In this document: piece after piece, positions 35,001 to 63,874 of the stretch | Numbering within the stretch: position 1 is the first letter of the stretch | Layout: the number at the start of each line of letters is the position of its first letter | Assembly: GCA_963753975.1 (NCBI GenBank) | Contig: CAVWEH010000002.1 | Coordinates: 160,001 to 224,000 of the forward strand | Direction of reading: 5' to 3' | Source of the DNA: an uncultured delta proteobacterium | Lineage (GTDB): Bacteria > Desulfobacterota > Syntrophia > Syntrophales > Smithellaceae | Length of the DNA: 64,000 nt | Notes under the pieces: generated by a model | Told to the model about the DNA's origin: nothing | The model's database searches: none | The model's input: the letters and a program-made list of their open reading frames with translations, nothing else | Translations under genes and position numbers: made by a program

Positions 35001-35477
35001 GGAGTAATCAGTAGTATGACCGAAAAGCAAACCCGGAGAAAAGATACAATGTGTAATGTTACCCTGGAGGATTTACAAGGTTCCGTAAACATTATATTTT
35101 GGGCGGATACCTATAAAAAATATTACTCCGTTCTGCATGAAGATGAGCCCGTTGTTATTCAGGGAATTGTTGATGTCGGAGATGAATCGCTAAAAATCAT
35201 TGCGCAGGAGGCGATAACGCTTTCCAAAGCACTGGAAAACCCTTACAAACAAGTGCGCTTCATGGTTAACGCCGATAGAATTTCTTCGGAGACTATTATT
35301 TCCCTGAATGAAACAATAAAAAAATATCATGGTAAATATGACGGTTACCTTCATATTATTAATGGAAAAAGTGAAACCGTCATATATTTAGGAGATGAAA
35401 TGCGCGTGGATATTAGCGAGAAGTTGAAAAAAGAGGCGGACAGCATTCTGGGGGAGGGTGCCACCGTATATTCCTAA
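32016..35477 (+). CDS. dnaE: DNA polymerase III alpha subunit
   Basis: HLHVHTQYSLLDG, GPGRGSAAGS, MPDIDID, YGFNKSH. Confidence 0.98.
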   Translation: MKHSDFVHLHVHTQYSLLDGMIRLEDLFKKAREYKMPAIAITDHGNMFGAIDFYQQAYKQGVKPIIGCELYVAPRSRLDKTYSIGETAWHLIVLVKNMQGYKNLMKLTSAGYLEGFYYRPRVDKEILKDCHEGLIAFSACLHGEINNLILKGKMEEAKEAARSYQAIFDEDNFFLELMENGIPEQKIVNKALMEISKDLSIPLVASNDCHYLNREHSEAHDVLLCIQTGKTIEDHDRMRLGTDQFYFRSPEEMSELFSQVPEALSNTVSVAERCNLSLEFGKFYLPNFEIKNPDETLNDYLERKAREGLQKLLPDILKDHKESEPEIREKYEKRLRDELEIIKTMGFAGYFLIVSDFVKHAKHNDIPVGPGRGSAAGSLVAYALKITTIDPIRYALFFERFLNPNRISMPDIDIDFCQEGRDEIIKYVTEKYGKDKVSQIITFGKMQAKAVIRDVGRALNIPYSEVDKIAKLVPNVLNITLDEAIKAEPRLQQEAKNNPQVAKLLSLSRILEGLNRHASIHAAGVVISDVPLVERVPLCMPKDEIVSQYSMNDIQTVGMTKFDFLGLKTLTAIKNAVKFVKASHNIDLEIDNLPLNDKQTYELLMRGDTDGIFQLESDGMKDIMKNLKPDRIEDVIALIALYRPGPMKMVPEYISRKQGKTKISYDLPELEPILKETYGIIVYQEQVMQIAGALANYSMAEADILRKVMGKKKSAEMDKEKPKFLEGTKKHKINENKARKIWEQMQDFAEYGFNKSHSTAYAMISYQTAYLKAHYPVAFMAALLTSEKDNRDKIIRHMSSCKEMGINILPPDINESFKDFSISGENIRFGLAAVKNVGYTAIDSIISAREKSKFSSFMDFLIRTDLRKTNKRVIESLIKCGAFDSLGFKRRQLIQHYEEAMDEAQRRQKETQSSQASFFDQFDSDSSAKNGLKAYEIPDISEWDQKELLAVEKEALGFYISGHPLLRFADRLKLVTNSDSSSLDTKKDKDTVTIAGVISSMTEKQTRRKDTMCNVTLEDLQGSVNIIFWADTYKKYYSVLHEDEPVVIQGIVDVGDESLKIIAQEAITLSKALENPYKQVRFMVNADRISSETIISLNETIKKYHGKYDGYLHIINGKSETVIYLGDEMRVDISEKLKKEADSILGEGATVYS

Positions 35478-35665
35478 TATCATTTTCTATTTCGGCTAAC
35501 TTTGTTGGCTTCGTCGTCGACTTCTTCAGCATATTAGTAATATGCCTCGTCGTATCCTCCTTGCCCCGCTGTTGAGGGACAGTTCAACTAACGATTTCCA
35601 GTTCACTGCGTTCCTGGGAATCGAGTTTCACTGCCGCCGCGTTATCCTTTGAATAAAATGATATT
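35476..35665. repeat. Hairpin repeat family Z copy 1, with a nested 70-bp family X insertion (35566-35635)
   Basis: Core similar to 62009-62130; outer inverted repeat AATATCATTTT/AAAATGATATT. Confidence 0.85.
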
Positions 35666-35740
35666 AAAAAAGAATGCAAATTTAGTAAAAAAGATCATAC
35701 ACTGAACCAATTTTATTGAGTATTTTATAAGTTGGCTTCC

Positions 35741-36460
35741 ATGAAATATGAAGAAAGAACTTATAGAAATTTAATCTCCAAAGACAATCTAAAATCATAC
35801 AATGTCGCTATCGCCGAAAGCGATCTTTTCATAAGTTCGGATAGTGATCTTTCGTTGCAAGCAAAAAAATCCTTACTTCATCATCGTTCATTATTAGAAA
35901 ATTATATTAAAAAACATCCTCTATTTTTGACATCTCTGCTGCCGTTGCCCACAGATAATCTAGCCCCGCCTATTGTAAGGGATATGTTAATTAATTCCAA
36001 TATTTGCGGGGTAGGGCCGATGGCTGCAGTTGCCGGAGCAATTGCTCAATTTGTGGGCAAAGATCTTATTGCTTTAGCAGAAACGCTAATAATCGAAAAT
36101 GGGGGGGATATATTTCTTAAAGCCAAAGATAGATTAACTGTTTCCGTGTATGCCGGAGAATCGCCCTTAAGTTATAAAGTAAATTTTGACGTAAAACCTG
36201 AAAAAAGTCCTTTGGGTATTTGTACTTCGTCGGGGACAGTCGGACCATCTTTGAGCTTCGGGAAAGCTAATGCAGTTTGTGTAATTTCCCCATCAGCGTC
36301 ATTGGCCGATGCGGCCGCTTCGGCTATCGGCAATAAAGTCAAAAGTAAAAGCGATATAAAAAAAGCGCTAGCTTTTGGGATAAAAATTGAAGGCGTTAAC
36401 GGGGTAATAATTATTTACGGAAGCGAAATGGGAGCAATAGGAGAGGTTGAATTTGTCTGA
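35741..36460 (+). CDS. UPF0280 / ApbE-like protein
   Basis: VGPMAAVAG, IENGGDI, GICTSSGTVG.SLSFG.A.A, LADAAA. Confidence 0.9.
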   Translation: MKYEERTYRNLISKDNLKSYNVAIAESDLFISSDSDLSLQAKKSLLHHRSLLENYIKKHPLFLTSLLPLPTDNLAPPIVRDMLINSNICGVGPMAAVAGAIAQFVGKDLIALAETLIIENGGDIFLKAKDRLTVSVYAGESPLSYKVNFDVKPEKSPLGICTSSGTVGPSLSFGKANAVCVISPSASLADAAASAIGNKVKSKSDIKKALAFGIKIEGVNGVIIIYGSEMGAIGEVEFV

Positions 36461-36805
36461 ATGTTCGTTCTGCTGGTTCTATCATTTTACCTGTCGAAAA
36501 GGGGCCTGTCTATCGTATTCAGCGAAAAGAGGGAGAATGCTCTTGTAATCAAGAAAAGTGTTTTCAATGTCGTTAGACATCCAATATACTTAAGCGAGAT
36601 TCTGCTTTATCTCGGCCTTCTGATGCTGAGTATCTCATTGGCTGCTGCAATGGTGTGGGTTATTGCGGTCGTGTTTTTGCATTACATCTCGCATTATGAA
36701 GAAAAGCTGCTGCTTGTCCGGTTTGGCCCGGAGTATGAACAATATATGCGCGAAGTGCCAATGTGGATCCCGCGATTTTGGAGGTGGAGTTCGTTTAAAA
36801 GATGA
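36461..36805 (+). pseudogene. Isoprenylcysteine carboxylmethyltransferase/PEMT-family membrane protein, likely 5'-truncated
   Basis: VVRHPIY, EEKLL...FG.EY.QY...VP; starts immediately after the previous stop. Confidence 0.65.
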
Positions 36806-37232
36806 AATACTCAATTCGACAAATGTCTATCCGTGATTATGAAGCCGTGGTTTCCTTATGGCGTGGAATCTCGGGTATCGGACTGGATGATGACAGCGAT
36901 TCCCGGCCGGCATCGCCCGCTACCTGAAACGTAATCCCGGGCTCAGTTTCGTGGCGCAGGTTCAAGACATGATCGTCGGGACTATTCTTTCCGGTCATGA
37001 CGGCAGACGCGGGTATCTCCATCACCTCGCCGTTGCTGCAACACACCGCAAGCTGGGCATTGGTAAAACACTGACTTTTAGATGTCTTCGAGCTCTGGGC
37101 AAACAAGGCATCCCGAAGTGCAACATTTTCCTGTTGCGCAGCAATTTCAGAGGCAGGTCTTTCTGGAAGCACAATGGCTGGAATCTTCGCCAAGACCTGA
37201 GTGTGCTCCAGAAGAAGACGAAGGATTTCTAA
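36802..37232 (+). CDS. GNAT acetyltransferase (YpeA-like); -1 indel near 36910
   Basis: MKYSIRQMSIRDYEAVVSLW, then shifted frame RNPGLSFVA...GHDGRRGYLHHLAV...RKLGIG. Confidence 0.8.
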
Positions 37233-37315
37233 CCAGCCGGTGGACTTTATGGGCGACAAGCGTCGAAAAGTCACCGGCACTGTTCAAATCGAAAAAGAGA
37301 AAGGGGAAGAGACAC

Positions 37316-37576
37316 ATGAAACTCAATATTAAAGCATTCGCATTGACTTGCGGCATTCTCTGGGGACTGGGACTATTTTTCCTAACCTGGTGGATCATCG
37401 CGTTTGAAGGGCCAAGCGTGGTTCCTACACTTATCGGCAGACTCTACCGAGGCTATACGATTACTCCTGTCGGCAGTGCAATAGGGTTGATCTGGGCGTT
37501 TTTTGATGGCCTGGTTGGAGGCGCCATATTTGCCTGGCTCTACAACAAAATAATGGATTTTGTAGGCTCCAAGTAG
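37316..37576 (+). CDS. Small membrane protein (family often labelled 'bacteriophage holin')
   Basis: MKLNIKAFALTCGILWG...Y.GY..T..GS.IG..W.F.DG...G.IFAWLYN. Confidence 0.75.
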   Translation: MKLNIKAFALTCGILWGLGLFFLTWWIIAFEGPSVVPTLIGRLYRGYTITPVGSAIGLIWAFFDGLVGGAIFAWLYNKIMDFVGSK

Positions 37577-37594
37577 GTACGAGAAAGCTAGATA

Positions 37595-37906
37595 ATGAGA
37601 ATTGACTGTTATTTGTCTCCGGAATGTGCTTCCGAAGAGGCTTTGCGGAAAAATATCACGCGCGCATTGGCCACCGAAAAGATCGAGGCGGAGCTGAGTG
37701 TTTACAGAATAGATAACGAAAAAGCTATTGCTCTGGGCGTAACAGGGTCGCCTTCAGTCTTCATCAACGGAAAGGAGTTGCAGCCACAGGGATTAGTCGG
37801 GTTTTCCTGAAGGATGTTCAGCGACGAGTCTGGAAGACTCACCAATATACCCACAGTGGAAACAATTCGATCGGCAATTAGAGAACACAACGTCTCCGCA
37901 AAATAA
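37595..37906 (+). CDS. Thioredoxin-fold probable selenoprotein (UGA at 37808-37810 read as Sec)
   Basis: C..C N-terminus, GSPSVFING, GFS-TGA-RMF; frame stays open 31 more codons; SECIS-like hairpin follows. Confidence 0.75.
37826..37840 (+). promoter_or_regulatory. Bacterial SECIS-like hairpin
   Basis: GAGTCT-GGA-AGACTC, apical G about 22 nt after the UGA. Confidence 0.65.
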
Positions 37907-38169
37907 TAATTATTTATGGAAGTGAAGCGGGAGCGATAGGGGAAGTTGAGTTGGTTTAATTTGTTCGAAATCGTGATAAGTGTATTATCATTCGCATCTA
38001 AGCTGCTGCTTGAAAAAATTAAATCAATATAGTAAAATAACAAAAAAAGATTATACGAATATTGATAAAGAAAAAGCTAGTGTAAATGAATTCGTACTTC
38101 TTAACATCATGATTTTATATAGAAAAATTTAATTGTTTATGCTTTTATTCAAGACGACATACAAACATT

Positions 38170-38697
38170 AAGGGCAAGGTATTTGCGCTGCTGCTCATAA
38201 TTCTATTAGCCCTTGCATCGCTTACCGGCTATCTGTATCTTACTAATAAAATTACTGTCGGGGAAAGGCAGATAGTTGCTGGCCAAAGACAACTCAAAAA
38301 AGGTCAGCTCATGCTCAAACAGGGAAAAACCAAACTGAAATTAGGCAAGGAAGAATTGTCACAAGGTAAGAAAGAATATGAGAAAAGTAAAGGCAATGTA
38401 TTCCTGGTAATGACGGATAAACTACTGAAAGACGGAAAAGGTTTCCAGCAAGGTAAAACGCGGATCGCTGAAGGACAAAGGCAGGTTGCCAAAGGAGAGC
38501 GCATGATCTACTTTGCGGAAATGCAACTTGCTGAAGGCAAGCTGGAACTGCGCCAAGGAATGGGACGGTTGAGATTGGCCAAGGGCATATGCTTTGTCTG
38601 TGCAATTGGCGTGGTTTTTTTCATCTCTCTATCGCTTCTTCTCTGGTTGTCTTGTACCAGATCACTGGTTCAAATCTTCTTGCATTCTGATGCTTAA
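38170..38697 (+). CDS. Membrane protein with Gly-heptad coiled coil; true start unclear
   Basis: Frame is open upstream of ATG 38311 through a TM segment (KVFALLLIILLALASL); G every 7 residues; C-terminal TM. Confidence 0.6.
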   Translation, partial: KGKVFALLLIILLALASLTGYLYLTNKITVGERQIVAGQRQLKKGQLMLKQGKTKLKLGKEELSQGKKEYEKSKGNVFLVMTDKLLKDGKGFQQGKTRIAEGQRQVAKGERMIYFAEMQLAEGKLELRQGMGRLRLAKGICFVCAIGVVFFISLSLLLWLSCTRSLVQIFLHSDA

Positions 38698-38823
38698 CTG
38701 GTGCTTCCGAAGATACCGTATATCTTCAGGGGATCTTCACTCGTTCTGTTATACAAAGAACCACATTCTTATTATCATTCTCGACTTGACGCGTAGAGCT
38801 TCAATTGTTTCAGCAAAAAAATA

Positions 38824-38851
38824 TTGACAAAGCGGGGAAGGGGGATACTAT
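38824..38851 (+). promoter_or_regulatory. sigma70 promoter upstream of the patatin remnant and DUF5343/HEPN pair
   Basis: TTGACA-16 nt-TACTAT. Confidence 0.6.
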
Positions 38852-38939
38852 GCGGACATCTATAAAATTCTACTGTCAATACGTGGCAATAGAATCAAGA
38901 ATAAGATAATATATCCTCCAAGCGCTAAGTTGGACGACT

Positions 38940-39074
38940 ATGACGACTGATAATTCACATATACAGAATTCGGCAGAGGATCGATTCCAAATACTCTCGC
39001 TCGATGACGGAGGAATCAAAGGCCTGTTCTCTGCCGCCGTAATAAAAGATGTACAAGTAAACATTATTAAGTGA
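38940..39074 (+). pseudogene. N-terminal remnant of a patatin-like (CapV-like) phospholipase
   Basis: 44-aa ORF containing RFQILSLDDGGIKGLFSAAV (patatin DGGGxxG motif with G->D); no GxSxG. Confidence 0.75.
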
Positions 39075-39106
39075 CAGTTTTAAACAATAAAGAGAGGAGT
39101 ATAAGT

Positions 39107-39715
39107 ATGGCGGCAGAACTTCCGTATCTAGCTTCTTACAAAAATGTTTCTGTACTATTTGAAAAAATATTGACGGCAAAGCAACCAGACGCATTCACCT
39201 TGAAATTTCTCTATGAAACGATTGGGTTAAAATCTATCCCAGACCGTCAATTAATTTCCCTTTTGAAAACGCTTGGTTTTTTGGATCCGTCTGGACGCCC
39301 AACCCAATCTTATGCTAAGTTAAAAAATAATAGTGAGGCTCCTTTCGCAATAGCAGCGGCAGTTCACAAAGCATACGAACCTCTCTTTGCGGCAAACGAA
39401 AATGCTAACGAGCTTTCTGGAGATGCCCTAAAAGGATTGGTCGCACAAGTCGCAGGAACTGACGCAGGCATTACTGCGAAAATTACAGGCACATTCAATG
39501 CGCTCGTTAAAAATAGCAATTTTTCTAGACCACCGGCCAGTTTGTCATCAGCGGAGAAAAACAAGAAGGAAAAAGAAAAAAGTGGAATTCAAGAATTAGA
39601 TAAAGGTTCTTTTAGACCGGAGTTTCATTATAACATTCAAATTCATCTTCCATCAAATGGAACTGAGGAAACTTATTTAAATATCTTTAATGCTGTACGA
39701 AAGGTTTTTAAATGA
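39107..39715 (+). CDS. DUF5343-like protein (202 aa)
   Basis: AGAGGAG RBS; LPY...LFEKI..A..P..FT..FL...LKTLGFLD.SG.PT..Y; tail FHYNIQIHLP...IF. Confidence 0.75.
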   Translation: MAAELPYLASYKNVSVLFEKILTAKQPDAFTLKFLYETIGLKSIPDRQLISLLKTLGFLDPSGRPTQSYAKLKNNSEAPFAIAAAVHKAYEPLFAANENANELSGDALKGLVAQVAGTDAGITAKITGTFNALVKNSNFSRPPASLSSAEKNKKEKEKSGIQELDKGSFRPEFHYNIQIHLPSNGTEETYLNIFNAVRKVFK

Positions 39716-40278
39716 TTAACGATGAACGCCTTGCCCTTTTTTTAATGTTAGGCCAATCTGGGCAACGAACACTCGATGAAATGCCCGAGATTGCTCCGCC
39801 TGAATCACTTTTGCTTTCTGATTCTTACGATCTTGCGACACTTCTTCCATCAAGTGTGCGAAGAGCTATAAATGCCGCCGAAACTTATAAACTTCTGTTT
39901 GTTTTTGAGGAATACCTTCGTGATTTTGTCATTGGTGTATTGACCAGCGATACTTCATCGGAGTGGTGGGCTAAAGTTCCAGAGGATGTTCAACAAGAAG
40001 TCACAAAACTTGAGGAAACAGAAGAAGCAAAAAGTTGGATGGCGCTCAGTTCACGAGGTAAAGCTGCTTTAATGACATATCCTCAGCTTTTGAGAACTAT
40101 TGATCATCGGTGGAAGGAAGACTTTGAAGAGATCATTCGGGACAAATCTCTCATTCAAGAAACAAGATTAATTTCTCATTTACGCAATACTATTTGCCAC
40201 ATGACTGTGATATCAGAAGAGGAAATGAATCGAATCCGTCAGACAATTCGTGATTGGTTTCGTGTAATAGCCCCATAA
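39712..40278 (+). CDS. Swt1-like HEPN domain protein (predicted RNase)
   Basis: Y.LLFVFE..LR.FV, EWW..VP, intact RxxxxH (RNTICH); ATGA overlap with the upstream gene. Confidence 0.8.
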   Translation: MINDERLALFLMLGQSGQRTLDEMPEIAPPESLLLSDSYDLATLLPSSVRRAINAAETYKLLFVFEEYLRDFVIGVLTSDTSSEWWAKVPEDVQQEVTKLEETEEAKSWMALSSRGKAALMTYPQLLRTIDHRWKEDFEEIIRDKSLIQETRLISHLRNTICHMTVISEEEMNRIRQTIRDWFRVIAP

Positions 40279-40341
40279 AGAAAATTGCCAAGCAATGATC
40301 GGGTGCGTTTTAGTGGCGCGAATTGATATTTGAACACATCA

Positions 40342-40369
40342 TGTTTACATAACATATCTTATAAGACAT
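40342..40369 (-). other. dif: Probable dif (XerCD) site
   Basis: ATGTCTTATAA-GATATG-TTATGTAAACA, 11-6-11 layout like E. coli GGTGCGCATAA-TGTATA-TTATGTTAAAT; intergenic at a gene-orientation convergence. Confidence 0.7.
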
Positions 40370-40446
40370 AGCCATTTTAAGGCCAAAGTCATTAAAGCAA
40401 CTAATTCTATTGCACTTTTGAGTAAATCTCGGTTGTCGTGATGGTT

Positions 40447-41403
40447 TTACAGCCCGTCGTCGGATAATTGCTTGATTAATTTCGCCTGACGCTCGGAAAG
40501 TTTGCTGGGAACTTCAATATTGATTTTTACGTATTGATCTCCCTTGCCGCCGCCTTTAAGTCCCGGAACACCGTAGCCCTTCATTCTTATCTTCGTGTTG
40601 TTTTGCGTGCCGGGACCTAGTTTCAGCCTTTTTGTGGCACCGTCCAAAGTAGGAACATCAATAGTTGTTCCCAACGCGGCCTGGGTAAATTTGACGGTTT
40701 TTTCGACGTACAAGTCATTACCGTCGCGGGAAAAGATGGGATGAGGCAAGACACTGATATTTAAATATAAATCACCACTAGGACCGCCATTGTGGCCGGA
40801 AAGGCCTTTACCGGGTAATCTTAGCTTTTTGCCGGTGCTGATTCCGGGCGGTATTTTAACACTTATATCTTCAATACGATTTTCGAGCTGAAAAGAGATC
40901 TTTTTGTCGGCGCCAAATACTGATTCCTCCAAAGAAATTGACAAGTTATACTCGGCATCCTGACCTTTTTGCGGCATGTTGGCGTATTGCCGGCCACCAC
41001 CCATAGAGCCAAATAGACCGGCAAAGGGATCGTCATAATCCTCTCCGCCTGTTCCTCCCCTTCTGGTCGTGCGAAATGTAGTTCTGCCTCCGCCTCTCGC
41101 CCCGCCAAAACCGAAACTGCGTAGTATTTCATCCAGATCGAAGCCGCGGAAAATATCTTCCTGTGAATACTGCTGGCGATATTGGTCGGCCGAACCGAAG
41201 GTATCGTATTCCTGGCGTTTTTTGGGGTCGCTTAAAACTGCGTAAGCTTCGCTTATTTTTTTGAATTTTTCTTCAGACGCTTTTTTATTAGTGGGATTCT
41301 TATCCGGATGCCATTTGACGGCCAACTTACGGTAGGCTTTTTTAATTTCATCAGCGGAGGCCTTTTTATCGACCCCTAAAACCTGATAGTAATCTTCTGC
41401 CAT
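40447..41403 (-). CDS. DnaJ-class chaperone without Zn finger (CbpA-like)
   Basis: [13 protein letters not shown] region, C-terminal DnaJ domains. Confidence 0.92.
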
Positions 41404-41452
41404 AGATTGGTATACCTAAAATGTTATAATTAAATGTATTCGACTTGTTAAT

Positions 41453-42038
41453 TTAGGCACTAATTCCCATTTGAAAAGCCGCTAAATTCATTTTTATTAA
41501 CTTTTCCGGAAATAATTTCTTAATAGTTTTTTCCCAAGTAGTTGAATTTATTTCCATTAAATTGGAAGCGACGCCCAAGAGGACGACGTTAGCAGCTTTG
41601 ACGTTTCCCGACTTCTGGGCGAGCTCAGCGGCAGTCGATTTCTTTGACGGATTTGTACCGCTCCTTTAAAAACTTAATAATATCCTTTGGATAAGGCAAA
41701 TCTCCCATATTTACTGCCGGGGGATAAATTTTTTCGCTGTTTACGATAATCGAAGCATCTTTTTTCAAATAATTCAGATAACGCAGGGTTTCCATTTTTT
41801 CAAAAGCTATAAGAATATCAACACTTTCAGGCTTAGCCAAAGGAGAATAAACCTTGCTTCCATAACGGACATGGCTGGTAACACAGCCACCGCGCTGAGC
41901 CATTCCGTGGACTTCGCTCTTTTTGACATCAAAGCCGGCATCCATTAGTGCCTCGCACATGATGTCGCTCGCTCTTATAATTCCTTGCCCGCCGACGCCG
42001 GCCAACAATATGCTTTTTGTTTTAATATTATCCGTCAT
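41453..42038 (-). CDS. iorB: Indolepyruvate:ferredoxin oxidoreductase beta; +1 indel near 41633
   Basis: GVGGQG, EVHGMAQRGG; shifted frame continues GNVKAANVVLLG...NLAAFQMG to TAA at 41453. Confidence 0.9.
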
Positions 42039-62167: not shown

Positions 62168-62242
62168 CTTTAATGCCTCAATAACCGACGCACTTTAGCG
62201 TGTTCGGCACCGTAAGGCACGCAGTTGATTGACTTGTTAGGC
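62168..62242 (-). mobile_element. attC: attC site, last of the array; R' box degenerate (ATTAAAG)
   Basis: GCCTAAC includes the gene stop; internal palindrome TCAATCAAC...GGTTATTGA. Confidence 0.75.
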
Positions 62243-62764
62243 AAATTTATTTTTGTTTATACACTGCCCAATATATTTCCATCGTTCAGGAGCTTGCATT
62301 TTTTTACTACGAACAGTTCTTCCTGAAGATAGCTTAACCTCAATGAAAAAATAAGGTGTAAACATTGCATTAAGAGGGTGTTCGTGCAGTTTACAACTTA
62401 ATTTTACCGGTTGATATAATTCTAGCTTGATTGATTCACTTTCCATGAGGCGATAAACAACCCCGCCATACCAAACATTTGGATAAAGGCTGGGTCTAAG
62501 TAATGGGTTGTGAATATGTTTCATTAATATATAGCGCAGTGAATATGTTCCTCTTGCGCTACATTGAAGGATATATTGGGTTTCTGTGCTTCTATTTGTA
62601 ATTCTCGCGCCAATTTCGTCTGGACCAGCATCGGCAAGAAATATTTTAAAAGAAGGTTCGATATGTATCGGGCGAAGCCATTGATACAGTTTTCGCACAG
62701 CAAATAACGCTGCAATTAAAGCAGTTATAACGCCAGCTAATTTAAGTATGGCTTCTATTCCCAT
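62237..62764 (-). CDS. Integron cassette ORF, N-terminal TM, unknown function (175 aa)
   Basis: ATG 62764 lies just inside GTTAGGC; the longer ORF-track start crosses the attC. Confidence 0.75.
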   Translation of the reverse strand: MGIEAILKLAGVITALIAALFAVRKLYQWLRPIHIEPSFKIFLADAGPDEIGARITNRSTETQYILQCSARGTYSLRYILMKHIHNPLLRPSLYPNVWYGGVVYRLMESESIKLELYQPVKLSCKLHEHPLNAMFTPYFFIEVKLSSGRTVRSKKMQAPERWKYIGQCINKNKFA

Positions 62765-62781
62765 TAATTTTTTATTCCTAT

Positions 62782-62839
62782 GCCTAACGAAATAATCACT
62801 AGCGCGAAGTACTGAGTCCGCACGAGTGACTTGTTGTGG
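62782..62839 (-). mobile_element. attC: attC site
   Basis: CCACAAC...TCACT...AGTGA...GTTAGGC, 58 bp. Confidence 0.85.
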
Positions 62840-62840
62840 A

Positions 62841-63254
62841 TTATTTGAATAATAAGTGCCATGCATCCCTGAATTTACTGTTTTTCAATTTGCCATAGCC
62901 TATGCAAGTCACCTCTGGTCTTCCTGTCCATTTTGTTAAAAGGCTATCTACAAGTAATGATGGTACGACAAATACATCGGGTGGCACTTCGACTTGATCG
63001 AATTTATTCAAATATGATACCAAGACAAAAAAATGATCTTTCTTTCTCAGCTTTGGGTTCAATGGCCAATTTGTTGTATTCTTTAATCCCTTAACGTCAA
63101 TAGTACAAGTTCTGCCATCTGGATGAGCAACAATGAGATCGATTTCTTTTGTATGTCCAAGGGTAATTGTTACAATATATCCAAGGCGAAAGAGTTGAGA
63201 GGCAATGTAGAATTCCGCAGCGAGATTAGTATTCTGAGTATTTTGTTTTATCAT
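62841..63254 (-). CDS. Integron cassette ORF: PD-(D/E)XK nuclease-fold protein
   Basis: AAEFYIASQLFRLG, IDLIV, IDVK motif order. Confidence 0.75.
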   Translation of the reverse strand: MIKQNTQNTNLAAEFYIASQLFRLGYIVTITLGHTKEIDLIVAHPDGRTCTIDVKGLKNTTNWPLNPKLRKKDHFFVLVSYLNKFDQVEVPPDVFVVPSLLVDSLLTKWTGRPEVTCIGYGKLKNSKFRDAWHLLFK

Positions 63255-63271
63255 CGTTTATCCCTTTCTAT

Positions 63272-63331
63272 CCACAACGTTGCTAATCAGCCGCGCGGCT
63301 TTTTGCGATCCGTTGAAAGAGATTGTTAGCA
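63272..63331 (-). mobile_element. attC: attC site
   Basis: TGCTAAC (includes stop)...GTTGTGG, 60 bp. Confidence 0.85.
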
Positions 63332-63874
63332 CCTCCCCTTCTTCTTAGATGTCAATCTCAACAGAAAATTATTGAAACGATCTAAGACAGGATCTAAAAA
63401 ATTTTCATTTTCTTTAAGATCACCACGTTTTGATTCCGCTTTTACCGTTTCCCATTCCTCTTTCAAAAGTTGCTGTGTAGTTTGGATAAGCTCATTTAAA
63501 GAATCTTTAAGTTCATATCTTTTTGAGGTATCAGTCAATTCAGGAATCGTTTTAATTAAATCTTCTATTTTACGTTCTAATTTACTTTCCGGGTCAGGAT
63601 TTAGTTGAAGCCTTATCAAATGCCTTAGTTTATCAATTTGCTTTAACACCTCTCTTTCTTCCGGTTTATTTCGGAGATTTGAATAACACCAATTGTATGT
63701 TAATCCGCAAAATGTCGATATGTTTTGTCTCAGGGTTTTAATCCATTTTACACGTTCGCTAGTGACAGTATTTATAAAGGTAGTTCGTCGGCTTTGCCTA
63801 TAGTTCATTACAATGTTCCATAGGCCAATAATGAAGGTGAGAATTATACCTATTGCGTAAAAAAGGTCTTTCAT
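63326..63874 (-). CDS. Integron cassette ORF, N-terminal TM plus helical domain, unknown function
   Basis: 182 aa, AT-rich, bounded by GTTAGGG and an attC. Confidence 0.8.
   Translation of the reverse strand: MKDLFYAIGIILTFIIGLWNIVMNYRQSRRTTFINTVTSERVKWIKTLRQNISTFCGLTYNWCYSNLRNKPEEREVLKQIDKLRHLIRLQLNPDPESKLERKIEDLIKTIPELTDTSKRYELKDSLNELIQTTQQLLKEEWETVKAESKRGDLKENENFLDPVLDRFNNFLLRLTSKKKGRC

Follow-up and report, generated by a model that had tools for sequence, protein, structure and literature searches.

In the type IX retron, a DNA-binding helix-turn-helix (HTH) protein controls a HEPN ribonuclease (RNase), which cleaves tRNA and rRNA when the cell is infected. DARNA is a tRNA-cleaving defence protein that is switched on by DNA, as described in the available part of its report (10.64898/2026.02.22.705581). 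Aside from such described systems, 145 PDCs were predicted from their embedding in BREX, DISARM or type I restriction-modification (R-M) loci; these guilt-by-embedding predictions are left for future study, according to the portion of the source at hand (Payne et al. 2024, 10.1101/2024.01.29.577857). We analysed a 64,000-nucleotide stretch (referred to as the window) of contig CAVWEH010000002.1 from an uncultured delta proteobacterium of the Smithellaceae. It carries two adjoining genes, A (DUF5343) and B (Swt1-like HEPN), which to judge from their sequences are a real feature and belong to one catalogued candidate family, PDC-M34. With a probability of about 0.42, the pair is an abortive-infection module composed of a DNA sensor and an RNase; that it has a defence role of some kind is probable. 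The function that the original prediction guessed is reasonable and finds partial support. The pairing itself is already catalogued, and the interest lies in the proposed mechanism, in the effector-swapping sensor and in the slot beside the chromosomal dif site.

The gene pair and the PDC-M34 family

39107-39715, plus strand: gene A, a DUF5343 protein of 202 residues, PDC-M34A (Pfam and PADLOC models)
39712-40278, plus strand: gene B, a Swt1-like HEPN protein of 188 residues, PDC-M34B (Pfam and PADLOC models)

The two frames are both open and adjoin each other on one strand with an ATGA overlap, as the original prediction of two intact, coupled genes had it. The ribosome-binding site of gene A (AGAGGAG) lies at 39093-39099. 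The non-coding flanks of the pair are just 32 and 63 bases in this genome, and an Rfam scan of 35400-41600 returned no match. Gene A matches Pfam DUF5343 over residues 6-140 with 113 bits (cut-off 27), and gene B matches HEPN_Swt1 with 54.7 bits (cut-off 27.5). Gene B is extended N-terminally by about 45 residues and carries R158-N-T-I-C-H163 (RNTICH); hence the HEPN RxxxxH motif, predicted to be complete, is so, with both residues and the HEPN fold intact. The PADLOC model of PDC-M34A (PDLC04589) matches gene A at positions 1-205 of 208 (E 6.7e-48), and that of PDC-M34B (PDLC04592) matches gene B at positions 35-190 of 192 (E 1.6e-26). The assignment is based on these hidden Markov models together with adjacency and the order of A and B. 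As both proteins match PDC-M34A/B, the pairing is not new, and the idea that it is unnamed is not supported; a match to a named system was among the conditions that the original prediction had set for removing its novelty.

The available part of the main text that lists the PDCs (10.1101/2024.01.29.577857) never names M34, DUF5343 or Swt1. A literature search with subscription papers and bioRxiv supplements outside its scope found no paper on PDC-M34, DUF5343 or PF17278, and a search for Swt1 with anti-phage terms returned the 2013 HEPN survey only. The supplements of PMC10440598 hold no DUF5343, Swt1 or PF17278, and those of PMC13586616 no PDC-M34 or DUF5343. As far as we have seen in the literature searched, PDC-M34 has not been characterised experimentally, nor has a mechanism been proposed for it.

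Gene A is composed of a helical domain (residues 1-140), a variable linker (141-169) and a conserved tail (170-200), with mean column conservation of 0.61, 0.20 and 0.75, respectively, among 120 pairs. Its C-terminal end reads FHYNIQIHLP...IFNAVRKVFK, and D46, R47 and T129 are among its conserved residues. The structural model of A is confident and all helical, with no strand of three or more residues. Residues 1-140 are predicted to form a double winged helix resembling those of FokI and BrxA, which agrees, as a prediction, with the winged-helix N-terminus that had been suspected; the six best fold matches of residues 1-150 are BrxA, SspB and the recognition domains of FokI, BpuJI and N.BspD6I. 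Gene B is predicted to adopt the HEPN helical fold. At E ≤ 0.001, Foldseek returned nothing from the PDB for either protein and nothing from BFVD for A. The BrxA profile PF08849 aligns with A at a probability of 1.3% over 21 columns, a Pfam scan of A gave no BrxA match, and a search of the ESM Atlas with A found DUF5343 clusters only.

The partner is present in 80 of 80 DUF5343 loci and in 80 of 80 HEPN loci of GTDB, and most loci preserve the gene overlap. Hence the two genes are co-inherited as a unit, with co-occurrence seen from either gene. R158 and H163 are kept in all 141 partners and are invariant in the alignment; gene B is likely an RNase. PDC-M34 is widespread, one narrow scan of GTDB having yielded 357 matching loci. 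The distribution is patchy, with 0 of 36 genomes of the family and 29 of 1200 genomes in three phyla.

We inspected the neighbourhoods of the 80 GTDB loci with PADLOC (E ≤ 1e-8), scanning 297 of the 303 open reading frames (ORFs) within two genes of the pair, six short ones being dropped, and removing by hand the weak hits and those to generic ABC-ATPases, kinases, HTH proteins, proteases and exonucleases. Matches were found for 39 of the 297, of which 28, in 21 of the 80 loci, were kept. Among the controls, one of 87 distal ORFs had a specific hit, and none of the 63 ORFs of the window did. Homologous pairs are thus enriched near defence genes (28/297 versus 1/87 distal, Fisher p 0.009), a check that the original prediction had put forward; with any hit counted, the comparison is 39/297 versus 6/150 controls (Fisher p 0.002). 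Kin among the loci are not independent. The neighbours include type I, II and IV restriction genes, Wadjet, PD-T7-1, Old- and AriA-like ATPases and several PDCs, and at locus L029 the pair sits between hsdM and hsdS. The patchy distribution and the copies in integron cassettes, described next, also count towards a defence context.

This enrichment argues against the pair being a selfish addiction module, which would stabilise its carrier cassette array or island and have no anti-phage role, and which we consider improbable. The lack of an adjoining defence gene at most loci would suit addiction, as would the gene families recurring nearby that we take to be recombinase-like. So would the occurrence of the pair as an integron cassette: of 135 distinct loci, 7 have an attC-like hairpin 3' of gene B, against none of 227 control genes (2/154 and 0/167 by a stricter pattern), and the array at locus L007 combines a tyrosine recombinase with nine attC-like sites. 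Toxin-antitoxin pairs stabilise integron arrays, as stated in the accessible part of 10.1101/2024.07.02.601686. Against addiction, searches of 72,556 plasmids, 50,697 phages and the viral contigs found no match to the pair, and in this genome it is on its own, without a mobile element that it could stabilise.

Nuclease partners, the conserved tail and the direction of control

Among 29 DUF5343 loci drawn without selection, the gene following DUF5343 encodes a Swt1-HEPN protein in 10, a DUF4145-like protein in five (three of them above the Pfam cut-off), Hypoth_Ymh in two and a DpnII-MboI nuclease in one, while the remainder comprise two fusions to an RNECAH domain, five fusions to TPR repeats and four unresolved loci. 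The Ymh partner gives PADLOC hits to Aga_HEPN and PD-Lambda-3_B, and is presumably a HEPN-type nuclease partner. DUF4145 is counted as a HEPN family in the part of PMC3710099 at hand. The two RNECAH-motif fusions (L237 and L238) are fused A-HEPN-like proteins from one genus, one of them frameshifted. In the ESM Atlas, the fused domain of L237 reaches AF_1680 clusters (0.93) and a DUF4145-bearing cluster (0.87), which serves as a lead only. A search among longer DUF5343 proteins gave 2 hits in 7997 scored candidates and no new fusion, and counts as weak evidence. At L017:10014-11387, 2.6 kb downstream of a normal pair, a second DUF5343 is fused to a Ser/Thr kinase; seen once, it may be accidental.

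Of 18 evaluable tail-bearing DUF5343 copies, 17 stand before a nuclease gene, four families in all, and the tail is absent from all eight fused forms. In 87 of 88 representatives having both parts, it ends at most 11 residues from the C-terminus. As the tail is present before nuclease genes and absent from fusions, we infer that it may couple the domain to a separate effector.

According to the proposed mechanism, DUF5343, a predicted DNA binder, would meet foreign or damaged DNA and, once bound, would switch on the HEPN protein; host RNA would then be cleaved and the cell arrested. As a docking or oligomerising element, the C-terminal tail of A might hold the effector, and clustering of A by DNA binding could let active HEPN dimers assemble. 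By analogy with other HEPN effectors, the targets would be tRNA or rRNA. In this genome, the pair would be transcribed from a promoter of the dif-side slot through a capV stub, both described below.

The direction of control was approached through 128 distinct loci away from contig edges. Both genes are intact in 115, A is broken and B intact in eight, and the reverse occurs in five, one of them perhaps a start-codon variant. The eight come from two cultured isolates and six metagenome-assembled genomes or metagenomes. In L152, an insertion of about 1.5 kb splits A. A toxin that kills its own cell would seldom be expected to persist once its antitoxin is lost, yet alleles with A broken and B intact occur; hence they argue weakly against a plain antitoxin, and the sequences lean towards A being a sensor or activator common to several nuclease families.

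The opposite polarity is a guarded toxin, in which A would restrain an active RNase B until a phage protein, host shut-off or a lost DNA anchor frees B and aborts infection. The evidence from defence context fits it equally. It also agrees with a DNA-binding gene standing first and a nuclease gene second with ATGA coupling, an order and coupling typical of type II toxin-antitoxin operons. Moreover, the HEPN of retron-Kva2 is toxic alone and attenuated by its winged-helix gene, according to the available part of 10.64898/2026.07.14.738597. However, alleles with a broken A are at least as common as the reverse, and a single tail acting as antitoxin would need to restrain three HEPN families as well as a PD-(D/E)XK-type nuclease; the Swt1-type partner has no profile similarity to the DUF4145-type partner or to the fused domain. 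The fused A-HEPN-like proteins also speak against a guarded toxin, and on balance we find it rather unlikely.

Several points weigh against the sensor-RNase reading as well. No solved relative was found by sequence, the best PDB searches giving E 0.13 and 0.41. The winged-helix protein of the type IX retron inhibits its HEPN, which is the opposite polarity, as far as the accessible part of 10.64898/2026.07.14.738597 goes. The broken-A alleles may be assembly errors, or B may have been silenced in them via lost translational coupling. At 59 of the 80 loci there is no specific defence gene within two ORFs; this agrees with a remark in the portion of 10.1101/2024.01.29.577857 at hand that PDCs are less island-bound. 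The neighbourhood comparison itself used ORFs from a crude script and the removal of generic hits by hand, and its distal control consists of 87 of 121 picked ORFs, from L004-L060 only. Covariation between A and B in 120 paired sequences gave no signal between tail and extension (6 of the top 100 pairs versus 4 expected). Lastly, a tail-bearing copy at L002 stands solo and the DUF5343 proteins of L268-L272 are fused to TPR repeats without a nuclease, so DUF5343 is not invariably a nuclease partner. In L268-L272, a long acidic linker joins DUF5343 to the TPR repeats and the tail is absent; these fusions, found in 5 of 400 genomes of one phylum, possibly have a non-defence role.

The solo copy, the TPR fusions and the missing covariation signal would also suit independence of the two proteins. 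A would then only regulate transcription or be a nucleoid-type DNA binder, with a self-associating tail, and B would act alone as a stress or defence RNase and never touch A. This is quite improbable: no B was found without A in the 80 loci, and no part of A is better conserved than the tail, which every fused form lacks. In addition, no operator motif common to 128 upstream regions was found, though operators may diverge too fast to be seen, and although the pair described here no longer has its own promoter, both genes are intact.

PDC-M34 now has a testable anatomy: a predicted DNA-recognition domain of restriction type, a tail that is conserved, and several exchanges of the nuclease partner. 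Should A indeed be a sensor, recognition of DNA would be tied to an RNase with no need of a methyltransferase, a guide RNA or a second messenger, and the tail would serve as a compact coupling element that can be transferred between proteins.

The variable slot beside dif

36461-40341, no strand: variable slot between the conserved gene 35732-36460 and dif
37902-37959, plus strand: second copy of the 3' end of the conserved gene, matching the gene end in genomes G005, G006, G010 and G011
38800-38856, plus strand: sigma70-type promoter element (A-tract, -35 TTGACA at 38824-38829, -10 TACTAT at 38846-38851, 16-base spacer)
38940-39074, plus strand: 5' stub of capV, 44 codons (CBASS phospholipase models)
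40342-40369, minus strand: chromosomal dif, right boundary of the slot (GC skew, GGGNAGGG polarity, family conservation)

The dif lies 63 bases after the stop of gene B. The cumulative GC skew of the contig peaks at window position 40331, where GGGNAGGG motifs flip from 31 plus and 1 minus on the left to 8 plus and 43 minus on the right. The site occurs once in this genome, 67 of the 116 family genomes carry it, and controls gave no match. Given the skew peak, the motif reversal, the single copy and the family-wide presence, the dif-like site noted 64 bp from the pair is a real chromosomal dif. A second dif at 37969-37996, which would bound a Xer cassette, was rejected, as its arms are 5 and not 6 bases apart and the dif pattern is single in the genome. 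What lies there is a palindrome, TGATAA-N5-TTATCA, just after the duplicated gene end, possibly a regulator box.

The slot is empty in G003, G007, G043 and 8 of 30 loci of the family, where the conserved gene abuts dif, and the similarity of relatives to the window begins at dif and extends rightward. The conserved gene has no Pfam hit and is presumably UPF0280/ApbE-like. Its duplicated end at 37902-37959 reads as the scar of an earlier insertion. Left of dif, the cargo varies among the window, G005, G006, G008-G011 and L203-L232. Eight of 30 non-housekeeping dif-side ORFs (hand-picked, without matched control) match PADLOC at E ≤ 1e-5, namely a UG21 reverse transcriptase, GmrSD-HNH, Avs2, PD-T7-4, three effector hits labelled TIR, and one with a SEC-C motif only. 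The reverse transcriptase, of 538 residues, alone fills the slot of G008 (L191:2618-4234, PADLOC RT_UG21, E 7e-143). As the slot holds a CBASS relic, GmrSD-HNH, Avs2, UG21, a PD-T7-4-like HEPN and TIR-like genes, its unannotated cargo makes a short list of new defence candidates: L184:1973-3180, L187:1656-2060, L190:5690-6013 and L229:589-1467, which have no Pfam or PADLOC hit.

In G089, of another genus of the family, a decayed pair of a DUF5343 tail and a DUF4145-like gene adjoins dif (L232:818-1387); there, the same sensor family reached this spot independently. Zot-family genes stand beside dif in two family members (L215:57-1001 and L219:1858-2925), which suggests filamentous phages integrated by Xer. 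Terminus regions gather foreign DNA, and that the cargo entered the slot by Xer is our guess. A literature search on the dif site, XerCD and defence hotspots, covering titles and the start of abstracts, found no defence slot at dif.

Within the slot, a GNAT acetyltransferase gene at 36805-37288 is split by a frameshift (intact, with 143 residues, in G005), and a degenerate attC-like hairpin after it (37227-37288) is the trace of an old integron cassette. No attC follows gene B, and the pair was rejected as an integron cassette in this genome. At the end of the window (62237-63874, minus strand), three low-GC genes, one with weak NERD/PD-(D/E)XK hits, are possibly the edge of another island.

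Taken alone, the sigma70-type promoter noted ahead of the pair is no more than chance, with 11 promoter-type sites found versus 8.9 ± 3.2 in shuffles, but the same element, with TTGACA invariant, adjoins dif in 4 of 14 genomes of the genus. It lies 0.9-1.6 kb from dif in G005, G006, G009 (twice) and G010, and the cargo behind it comprises two unknowns, an SDH-type protease pair, a DUF4145 protein and a SEC-C protein. Since the same element precedes different genes beside dif, it belongs to the slot and not to the pair. The spacer of the promoter holds a dif-pointing GGGNAGGG motif of KOPS type (38835-38842), the last one on the plus strand before dif, which is kept in G006 and G010 and not in G005 and G009.

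The patatin/CapV remnant noted earlier is indeed the start of a capV gene, 84% identical over 90 bp to the intact capV of G085, which encodes 330 residues and precedes an SMODS/AGS-C CD-NTase. This CD-NTase has no match at E ≤ 0.01 in the present genome (95% complete). The stub is the relic of an earlier CBASS cargo, and the pair was rejected as part of a CBASS system.

The slot offers a second lead, as one fixed place holds different, often defence-like cargo in different genomes of the family. A broader reading, which we regard as unlikely, takes DUF5343 as a free-standing sensor of FokI/BrxA type and its 30-residue tail as a universal socket, with modules swapped, in this lineage, at a promoter-equipped dif slot. 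The tail would plug in trans into at least four unrelated nuclease families, and the effector would replace it in fusions. If true, DUF5343 proteins and their partners would form a plug-and-play immune family, which recognises phage DNA as a restriction enzyme does but responds by destroying host RNA, and the slot would be an integrase-free expression platform for swapped defence cargo.

Comparison with known systems

The type IX retron resembles the pair as predicted here, in that a DNA-binding protein controls a HEPN RNase. It consists of a reverse transcriptase, a non-coding RNA, a HEPN protein and a winged-helix protein, whereas the pair has neither reverse transcriptase nor multicopy single-stranded DNA; beside the pair, no reverse transcriptase gene was found in 80 loci, one hit at L011 being to the protease part of a reverse transcriptase-protease model. 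The retron HEPN lacks R-x4-6-H, whereas gene B has R-x4-H. In addition, the retron winged-helix protein has two HEPN-binding domains before its HTH and acts as an inhibitor.

AbiF, of the Abi2-Swt1 HEPN group (PDB 8VZ6; PMC3710099), is bound to a non-coding RNA, whereas gene B is always accompanied by a protein partner, and no common flanking RNA was found beside the pair. HEPN-MNT is likewise a two-gene operon with the HEPN RNase second, and HEPN toxins are among the fold matches of B; its first gene is a nucleotidyltransferase, whereas gene A matches DUF5343 only and has an all-helical model. BrxA, SspB and the FokI, BpuJI and N.BspD6I domains, which A is predicted to resemble most closely, are double HTH modules of DNA-targeting defence.

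Compared with PDC-M34 itself, the pair shows no difference at the family level, both proteins matching the models over nearly their whole length. The relative at L029 lies within a type I R-M operon, and such embedding was the criterion for choosing PDCs. The models of A also match copies whose partners are not M34B, such as Ymh and DUF4145-like proteins.
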